A stretch of 32,000 nucleotides of DNA, from the NCBI GenBank assembly GCA_031288595.1, contig JAITRB010000007.1:1-32000 (forward strand), in the 5' to 3' direction. The position numbers and the translations under genes were made by a program. Source of the stretch: Puniceicoccales bacterium. Lineage in GTDB: Bacteria; Verrucomicrobiota; Verrucomicrobiia; Opitutales; JAIRLG01. This document shows, in pieces, positions 6,599 through 6,715 of the stretch (its first letter is position 1; the number at the start of each line of letters is the position of its first letter). Below the pieces are notes generated by a model, which worked only from the letters and a program-made list of their open reading frames with translations, was not told the DNA's origin and made no database searches.

Positions 6599-6715
6599 TG
6601 GGGATCTGGGGCTTGCCTTGGGATTCCCAAGGAATCCGCCTGCGAAGCAGGCTTGCCGGAGGGGAAGGCCGGGTCCCGGCCTTCCCCTCCGGCCAAGGCA
6701 AGCCCCGGATCCCCA
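6599..6715 (+). repeat. cloverleaf nested-palindrome element, copy 2
   Basis: Closing stem of 22-23 bp, 6599/6600-6621 with 6693-6714/6715, including one G.U. Hairpins: GATTCC-CAA-GGAATC (6622-6636); GCCTGC-GAA-GCAGGC (6638-6652); GCCGGAGGGGAAGGCCGG-GTC-CCGGCCTTCCCCTCCGGC (6655-6693). Confidence 0.85.

Follow-up and report, generated by a model that had tools for sequence, protein, structure and literature searches.

A cloverleaf between murE and atpA as a probable copy of a REP/MITE-like intergenic repeat family in termite-gut Puniceicoccales

A REP is a single imperfect hairpin of 20-40 nt with a conserved GTAG/CTAC head, a REPIN consists of two inverted REPs, and the cognate RAYT is an IS200/IS605-like Y1 transposase gene that is itself flanked by REPs. 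The Correia/NEMIS elements of Neisseria, the enterobacterial ERIC/IRU elements and the YPAL elements of Yersinia are longer, at ~100-170 bp, form very stable RNA hairpins when they are co-transcribed and show presence/absence polymorphism between strains; they have conserved outer terminal inverted repeats, accompanied in Correia by a TA target duplication. Integron attC sites carry GTTRRRY/RYYYAAC cores and strand-specific extrahelical bases, and are found at cassette boundaries next to intI. The ITR of parvoviruses such as AAV is a T-shaped hairpin with flip and flop forms at the end of a linear ssDNA genome, which replicates by hairpin priming.

The element considered here, w2, lies between murE and atpA of a Puniceicoccales bacterium (Verrucomicrobiota), in a window of 32 kb, by which we mean the whole stretch of DNA that was analysed. 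Its parts and its neighbours are the following.

6599-6715, no strand assigned: cloverleaf element w2, a closing stem with hairpins A, B and C, in the order A-B-C on the plus strand
6599-6621: closing stem, 5' arm; its inner part, GCTTGCCTTGG, recurs in family members and its outer part, TGGGGATCTGGG, is variable
6622-6636: hairpin A, GATTCC-CAA-GGAATC, a module also present in w4, L002a, L002b, L030, L032a and L034
6638-6652: hairpin B, GCCTGC-GAA-GCAGGC, which contains GCGAAGC; other members have GCCCGC-N3-GCGGGC
6655-6693: hairpin C, hypervariable across the family; a perfect palindrome of 18 bp, its 5' arm rich in purines
6693/6694-6715: 3' arm of the closing stem, from an inverted-repeat search
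4977-6563, minus strand: atpA (F1 alpha subunit), with its longest ORF start at 6563, 35 nt from w2, and its probable start at 6533
6561-6588, minus strand: promoter-like motif between w2 and atpA, TTGCCT (6588-6583), a 16-nt variable spacer and TAGATG (6566-6561)
6794-8248, minus strand: murE (Mur ligase), whose ORF ends 78 nt from w2

A sequence-only reading of this locus had described a closing stem of 22-23 bp with a single G.U that encloses three hairpins, and this is borne out by the sequence itself, by the inverted-repeat search and by the folds; the distances that it gave, 78 nt from the murE end and 35 nt from the longest atpA ORF start, are likewise correct. The two arms (6599-6621 and 6693-6715) are 23 nt long and 96% complementary, the sole mismatch being a T.G that corresponds to a G.U on the plus strand. 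Folded as RNA, w2 has a minimum free energy of -110.8 kcal/mol on the plus strand (z -10.9) and of -112.0 kcal/mol on the minus strand (z -9.6), with none of 200 shuffles as stable in either case, and the two DNA strands fold equally strongly (-64.7 and -62.6 kcal/mol, z about -13). Hairpin C shows compensatory differences between w2 and its counterparts in two relatives (L002b and L030; the L numbers denote loci of relatives). At gathering thresholds only tRNAs in the window pass in Rfam, none of them at w2, and at E <= 10 the w2 region yields only weak chance matches to miRNA hairpins, of 21-28 bits against thresholds of 77-100. ARAGORN places three tRNAs elsewhere in the window and none at 6599-6715; the arm lengths of w2 (23, 6, 6 and 18 bp), together with its 3-nt loops, do not fit a tRNA, a tmRNA or a tRNA-like structure. 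A retron msr/msd was also considered for the combination of closing stem, short hairpins and long hairpin, and was rejected, there being no reverse transcriptase nearby and six copies in 32 kb.

The label "copy 2", which the locus had been given, is right in spirit: a structure scan of the 32-kb window finds six elements that consist of a closing stem plus three hairpins, every one of them intergenic, and almost all strong hairpins of the window fall within these six cloverleaves. Those other than w2 are listed here; copies were oriented such that the two short hairpins come before the long one (A-B-C).

4123-4231, no strand assigned: w1, type II, that is, the same architecture with a different sequence; within a duplicated noncoding block (4029-4378)
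10194-10298, no strand assigned: w3, type II, 86% identical to w1; within the duplicated block 10100-10463
13001-13104, A-B-C on the plus strand: w4, in a divergent region, 68 nt upstream of the ftsK start, with orthologues in L032 and L034
17602-17700, A-B-C on the plus strand: w5, between the convergent ybeY and lipase genes
20226-20328, A-B-C on the minus strand: w6, 46 nt after tRNA-Leu and upstream of atpB

When copies are listed in this orientation and aligned, an inner closing stem GCCTTKG/CMAAGGC emerges as a shared module, as do a hairpin A of the form GATTCC-N3-GGAATC or GAGCCC-N3-GGGCTC and a hairpin B of the form GCCYGC-N3-GCRGGC with its 3-nt loop. Conservation of the closing stem extends over its inner 7-11 bp, its outermost bases being different in each copy, and both the outer part of this stem and the long hairpin C vary in sequence from copy to copy with their pairing always kept. 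The whole has a four-way-junction architecture and is ~80-117 bp long in the family. At least nine further cloverleaves are present in close Puniceicoccales relatives. The members found there are L002a, L002b and L002c (a variant with three short hairpins, at the end of contig L002), L003, L029, L030, L032a, L032b, L033a, L033b and, in L034, one core-family copy and one type II copy, the latter being the third type II copy.

The family appears to be confined to this lineage. A covariance model (R1), built from 12 members, recovers only the listed members in 501 kb, w2 scoring 83 bits (E 4e-16) as one of the training members, and it has no match in ~390 kb of other Opitutales loci, or in L027 and L028, whose AtpA is 73% identical; the loci without a match are L004-L025, L027, L028 and L031. 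Matches of a first structure detector in L015 were imperfect folds in GC-rich coding sequence, and R1 agrees that they are not family members. The exact pattern of hairpins A and B (GATTCC..GGAATC..GCCYGC..GCRGGC) has no occurrence in viral contigs and none in JGI metagenome contigs, and the GAGCCC variant of the pattern likewise has none in the latter, the lineage being seemingly absent from both collections; among plasmids and phages blastn finds nothing that matches the element, and in the literature we did not find repeats of this kind described in Verrucomicrobia. Loci compared through MurE place the organism among the Puniceicoccales, and its nearest MAGs are from sample Pcl387, a lower-termite gut. 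Our best reading is of REP/MITE-like intergenic repeats, previously undescribed, in a termite-gut clade of Puniceicoccales.

Some features of the copies and their surroundings may be recorded in their own right. The blocks that hold the type II copies (4029-4378 and 10100-10463) are a noncoding duplication of ~350 nt, with 81% identity over the first 204 nt and 70% over a further 63; each starts shortly after a minus-strand stop codon (of xseB and ftsK) and holds w1 or w3 as well as a plus-strand T-run. The same block, with the third type II cloverleaf, is found 3' of ftsK in L034 and is absent there in the near-identical L032. All three tRNA genes of the window (9629-9705, 13304-13380 and 20096-20180) have a cloverleaf within 46-490 nt (w3, w4 and w6), and L033a and L033b likewise lie beside a tRNA-Val; this could be a target preference, or merely reflect larger gaps around tRNA genes. 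In L033b hairpins A and B are AT-shifted with compensatory changes (GATTTC/GAAATC and GCTCAC/GTGAGC). GC content is 58-62% in the lineage of the window, L002 and L032 and 47-50% in L003, L027, L029 and L033, a large shift within a clade in which AtpA and FtsK are ~70-77% identical to those of the window.

Among the described systems, the cloverleaves have a lifestyle that seems closest to REP/REPIN and to Correia/ERIC-type elements, with an interior that flips in a manner reminiscent of parvoviral ITRs. Like the REP, BIME and REPIN sequences of Proteobacteria they are short, GC-rich, palindromic, strictly extragenic and multi-copy, they are lineage-specific with turnover between strains, they can fold on either strand, and they may secondarily stabilise an upstream mRNA or attenuate transcription. 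In contrast to these sequences, their long closing stem encloses three separate hairpins in a four-way junction and only the inner modules are conserved; with no GTAG head in those modules and a different architecture, they are not REP, BIME or REPIN sequences proper. The 32-kb window has no RAYT gene. With Correia/NEMIS, ERIC/IRU and YPAL they share an intergenic location, inverted ends and occurrence in both orientations, and effects on mRNA processing would in both cases be by-products. However, the outer stem of the cloverleaf is variable and no duplication is seen, and the interiors of Correia, ERIC and YPAL elements are not nested perfect palindromes. The outer ends are not conserved among copies as they would be in a MITE, so that the cloverleaves are not assigned to that class. 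The likeness to an AAV ITR lies in a long outer palindrome around short GC-rich internal palindromes with 3-nt loops and in the two configurations produced by inversion of the interior (that of the window and L030, and that of L002); unlike ITRs, the cloverleaves are interstitial in a bacterial chromosome, have three inner hairpins, show no sequence similarity to ITRs and have no match in viral contigs. Like an attC site, finally, the family is defined mostly by a folded palindrome with a variable, sometimes branched, central or terminal part, in which pairing is conserved while sequence varies. An attC assignment was rejected, since the closing stems contain no attC cores, mismatches are strand-symmetric and the neighbours are housekeeping genes (murE, atpA and ftsK).

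Comparison of the murE-atpA gap across relatives shows that the element varies there in orientation, in position and in its very presence. In L030, whose AtpA is 91% identical, the element is present in the orientation of the window, which is also that of L001, a locus from the same run as the window. In L002, the closest relative (MurE 84% identical), the same gap with homologous flanks contains an element with the same closing arms and an inverted interior: blastn aligns L002 3724-3833 with window 6601-6714 plus/plus, while both flanks align plus/minus. L003 and L029 have a diverged member ~50-70 nt after murE and ~190 nt from the atpA-proximal motif, its displacement away from atpA being likewise ~190 nt, and in L027 the gap is without an element and has a T-rich stretch after murE instead. 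Two smaller observations concern the same gap: L002 has ~200 extra nt in it (3500-3724), including a 13-bp hairpin (CATAAGCCGAGCT...AGGTCGGTTTATG) of which the window retains recognisable pieces at ~6745-6775. The gap is evolving via indels around palindromes.

Elsewhere the picture is similar. L033 has no element at the sites of w5 and w6, its own two being across tRNA-Val from the position of w4, and L002a and L002c (after atpA) have no counterpart in the window. Between L032 and L034, where the flank downstream of ftsK is ~97% identical, a core-family element in the former is matched by a type II element in the latter. Contigs of the relatives tend to end at elements (the end of L002, the end of L001 inside w1, the start of L032), as is expected of repeats. 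The family thus behaves as dispersed repeats generally do: unrelated loci hold copies that are alike in sequence, and among close relatives copies have been gained, lost and replaced at syntenic sites. Flanking sequence of 11 copies reveals no consistent direct repeat or target duplication, and alignments between L002 and the window, upstream of murE and downstream of atpA, are too diverged or too cut by contig ends to give boundaries; as neither a target-site duplication nor a precise empty site emerged, the word "mobile" rests on presence/absence and on the shared modules. Two local features of the w4 region may be added. In L034 there is a tandem duplication of ~60 nt (565-680, ...gccatcaacagtttctaaaaataccgcattcccctgggga...) between the w4 orthologue and the ftsK start, single in the window. 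L032 has long T, C and G homopolymer runs at 40-100, at the contig start and inside the w4 orthologue, which are probably an assembly artefact at a repeat and make that copy unfit for fine comparison.

The inverted interior in L002 raises the question of an inverton, in which an invertase would use the arms as its sites of recombination and a flipped interior would alter a directional signal that acts on murE or atpA. Across different genomes one does find inverted repeats flanking a segment that is seen in both orientations: the interior of L002 is opposite to that of the window and of L030 and is bounded by inverted arms, and these arms are 23 bp long. Yet the 71-bp interior consists of palindromic hairpins only, with no recognisable promoter, the window has no recombinase gene nearby, and the w4 orthologues share a single orientation in three genomes. 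In addition, GGGGTGGGCGGGTGGGG, which in L002 (3705-3724) is on the side of the element that faces murE, is found as its reverse complement on the atpA side in L030 (381-405), so that the inverted segment may extend past the closing-stem arms on one side. Recombination or template switching between any inverted repeats can also explain an inversion of this kind, and we consider a dedicated inverton at this site very unlikely.

It had also been proposed that w2, on the minus strand, is a structure in the 5' leader of atpA, close enough to influence its ribosome-binding site. What spoke for this, or for an attenuator specific to murE-atpA, is the mere 35 nt between w2 and the start of the longest atpA ORF. 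This start is doubtful, however. In all six aligned genomes, including the element-free L027, CACTTGCYTT and, after 16 nt that vary in sequence, TAGAWR lie just upstream of atpA. Promoters look like this, with conserved hexamers and a spacer that is fixed in length and variable in sequence, and we take TTGCYT-N16-TAGAWR to be a putative atpA promoter. The ATG at 6563 lies within the conserved TTAGATG, its counterpart in L027 reaches a stop after seven codons, and AtpA homologues have 508-516 aa; all this makes the ATG at 6533, 65 nt from w2, the probable true start, in which case the longest-ORF start is 30 nt too far upstream. Since the motif stands between w2 and atpA and is kept in L027 without the element, w2 is probably upstream of the atpA promoter and most likely outside the atpA transcript.

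The leader proposal fares no better in the other comparisons. The interior of w2 is inverted in L002, the element is displaced by ~190 nt in L003 and L029 and it is absent from L027, so that comparison of the gap across relatives, which had been suggested as a check, does not support it; a role specific to atpA is further contradicted by the recurrence of the same element type at five other, unrelated intergenic sites of the window. We thus find neither a position between transcription start and start codon, as judged from the putative promoter, nor a fixed orientation, nor conservation with the gene, and a function of w2 as an atpA leader or as a murE-atpA attenuator seems to us hardly credible. 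The same element type at unrelated sites, together with inversion, displacement and absence at this one, indicates a dispersed repeat rather than a locus-specific regulator. The other proposal for w2, that it is a murE 3' structure, holds to the extent that the element is downstream of murE and would be part of any read-through transcript, although it is true only in this trivial positional sense.

Whether the cloverleaf is maintained as DNA or as RNA can be approached through its base pairs. In an alignment of 12 members, covering the closing stem and hairpins A and B, standard pairs occupy 97.3% of the cells, as compared with 33-52% in slid controls, and in 18 of 26 pairs both partners have changed (65 cells), a level reached by none of 500 shuffles; one-sided changes, from G-C to G-U, are almost absent. 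When all helices of 14 members are counted, there are 610 Watson-Crick pairs, and G.U pairs number nine on one strand and 10 on the other. RNA helices under selection normally tolerate many G.U pairs, and do so on the transcribed strand only. A palindrome that is near-perfect and strand-symmetric thus points to a constraint or process at the DNA level rather than to the signature of a one-strand RNA. The orientation of copies relative to neighbouring genes (seven antisense and four sense) or to GC skew (11 to 4) is not significant in either case, and the orientation and G.U statistics are weak on account of the small sample, ~18 copies in total, several of which are orthologous or duplicated.

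Such strong covariation might also be taken to mean that each cloverleaf is a small structured RNA gene, independently transcribed, whose function is carried by its fold. Two further features would suit this explanation: in each element one strand has purine-rich loops (GNA or GNRA-like), which hints at a constraint at the single-strand level and speaks against a pure DNA reading, and all three G.U pairs of w1 are on one strand. The overall G.U count, however, is strand-symmetric, unpaired nucleotides are not conserved, junction linkers are variable at 0-3 nt, and loop sequences change freely between orthologues. Moreover, both hairpin orders occur relative to the strand with the purine loops, the copies are not flanked by a conserved promoter or terminator, and Rfam has no match to them. 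We therefore give little credence to a family of RNA genes.

An RNA-level role of a different kind deserves more weight. The cloverleaves might primarily be 3'-end elements, acting as factor-assisted or bidirectional terminators or as barriers to exonucleases in a lineage that is seemingly poor in hairpin-plus-U terminators; at w2 the murE transcript would then be terminated or stabilised and the atpA promoter insulated. The window has about as many classical terminator-like sites as expected (25 found, 20.9 expected), and five of the six window copies lie 3' of the end of a gene or tRNA. In particular, w2 follows the murE stop by 78 nt and closely precedes the promoter-like motif, w5 is between convergent genes and w6 is just after tRNA-Leu, while the gap of L027, which has no element, has the T-rich stretch after murE. 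Extreme stability in both orientations is what a bidirectional element would need. On the other hand, w4, at 68 nt upstream of ftsK, occupies a divergent promoter region, and the nearest stop codon is 185-230 nt away from w1 and w3. Modules common to unrelated loci point to copying and not to the evolution of terminators in situ, sites are not conserved among relatives, and G.U pairs are almost absent and strand-symmetric, unlike those of selected RNA helices. Nor is there a U-tract at w2: a T-run directly after the element is absent on both strands, in agreement with the earlier statement that it is not a classical intrinsic terminator, and the window scan does not list it among the terminator-like sites. 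A primary function of this kind we regard as unlikely, although a secondary role as a barrier at RNA 3' ends is plausible.

Taken together, we consider it probable that w2 is a copy of a lineage-restricted repeat family, that the family is propagated and maintained at the DNA level, that the interior inverts by exchange between the arms and that effects on murE or atpA are only incidental, this judgement applying to the combination as a whole. The cloverleaves would behave as non-autonomous mobile or recombinogenic DNA, in the manner of REP, REPIN or MITE sequences. Their perfect palindromy would be maintained at the DNA level, the likely routes being template switching from arm to arm or gene conversion during replication, and/or selection for extrusion as a hairpin or cruciform that a structure-specific protein recognises. 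An exchange between the 23-bp inverted arms, by recombination or template switching, would flip the interior from one form to the other. At its present site w2 would be a passenger between the end of murE and the conserved promoter-like motif of atpA. Since it folds equally well either way, any transcript reading through from murE would have at its end a structure of about -110 kcal/mol, which could stop 3' exonucleases or hinder RNA polymerase; murE would be affected in this way only as a by-product that does not depend on orientation, with no dedicated control of atpA. Some observations count against this reading: no transposase, RAYT or invertase is found in the window, where only housekeeping genes are encoded, and the outermost sequence of the closing stem is not conserved, unlike the terminal inverted repeats of MITEs.

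A bolder version is that the cloverleaves are a new class of element, defined by structure, that propagates as a folded four-way DNA junction, perhaps with flip/flop and with recognition by an enzyme; as a combined claim we think this rather improbable. A structure-specific enzyme would here recognise the conserved hairpins A and B and the junction-proximal part of the stem, hairpin-templated synthesis would regenerate the variable stem and the long hairpin as perfect palindromes, and the interior would alternate between flip and flop as in parvoviral ITRs. If true, this would be the equivalent, on a bacterial chromosome, of hairpin-primed replication or resolution, and possibly also the lineage's orientation-independent barrier to transcription.

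For annotation, the repeat-family reading means that w2 should be labelled as a copy of a repeat and not as a riboswitch or leader of atpA, and that similar structures elsewhere in these genomes should not be named as locus-specific regulators. The interest of the family lies in its four-way junction, in which conserved inner modules stand against hypervariable yet perfectly paired outer ones. Covariation statistics alone cannot tell DNA-level maintenance from RNA-level selection; covariation that is almost purely Watson-Crick and strand-neutral, together with one flipped orthologue, makes the family a natural test case for separating the maintenance of palindromes at the DNA level, by template switching or cruciform recognition, from selection at the RNA level. 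In practical terms, cloverleaf repeats break metagenome assemblies of this termite-gut clade and could serve as strain markers.

A few observations on the wider loci remain. The window has 1.4 kb without a credible ORF between xseB and glgP (3034-4460), where L027, L028 and probably L029 have dxs; a tblastn search found no dxs remnant anywhere in the window, and dxs has thus been deleted or moved. The ATP synthase genes of the window are scattered, with atpA (4977-6563) alone between murE and xseB and with atpB and atpF 14 kb away (20692-22748), while in a more distant relative (L031 1103-5940) atpA-atpG-atpD, an unannotated ORF of 189 aa and atpC are all adjacent, which suggests a rearrangement of ATP synthase genes in this clade. 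At 28939-29418 of the window, among housekeeping genes of the cell envelope, an ORF with a CesT-family domain (type III secretion chaperone) adjoins a GNAT acetyltransferase; such an ORF is unexpected there and is compatible with a host- or protist-associated lifestyle. Compared with the window, L033 (1806-4926) has an insertion of three SocA_Panacea-domain genes between atpB/tRNA-Leu and ybeY, and all but one are followed by a small ORF, so that in appearance they are antitoxin-like modules.
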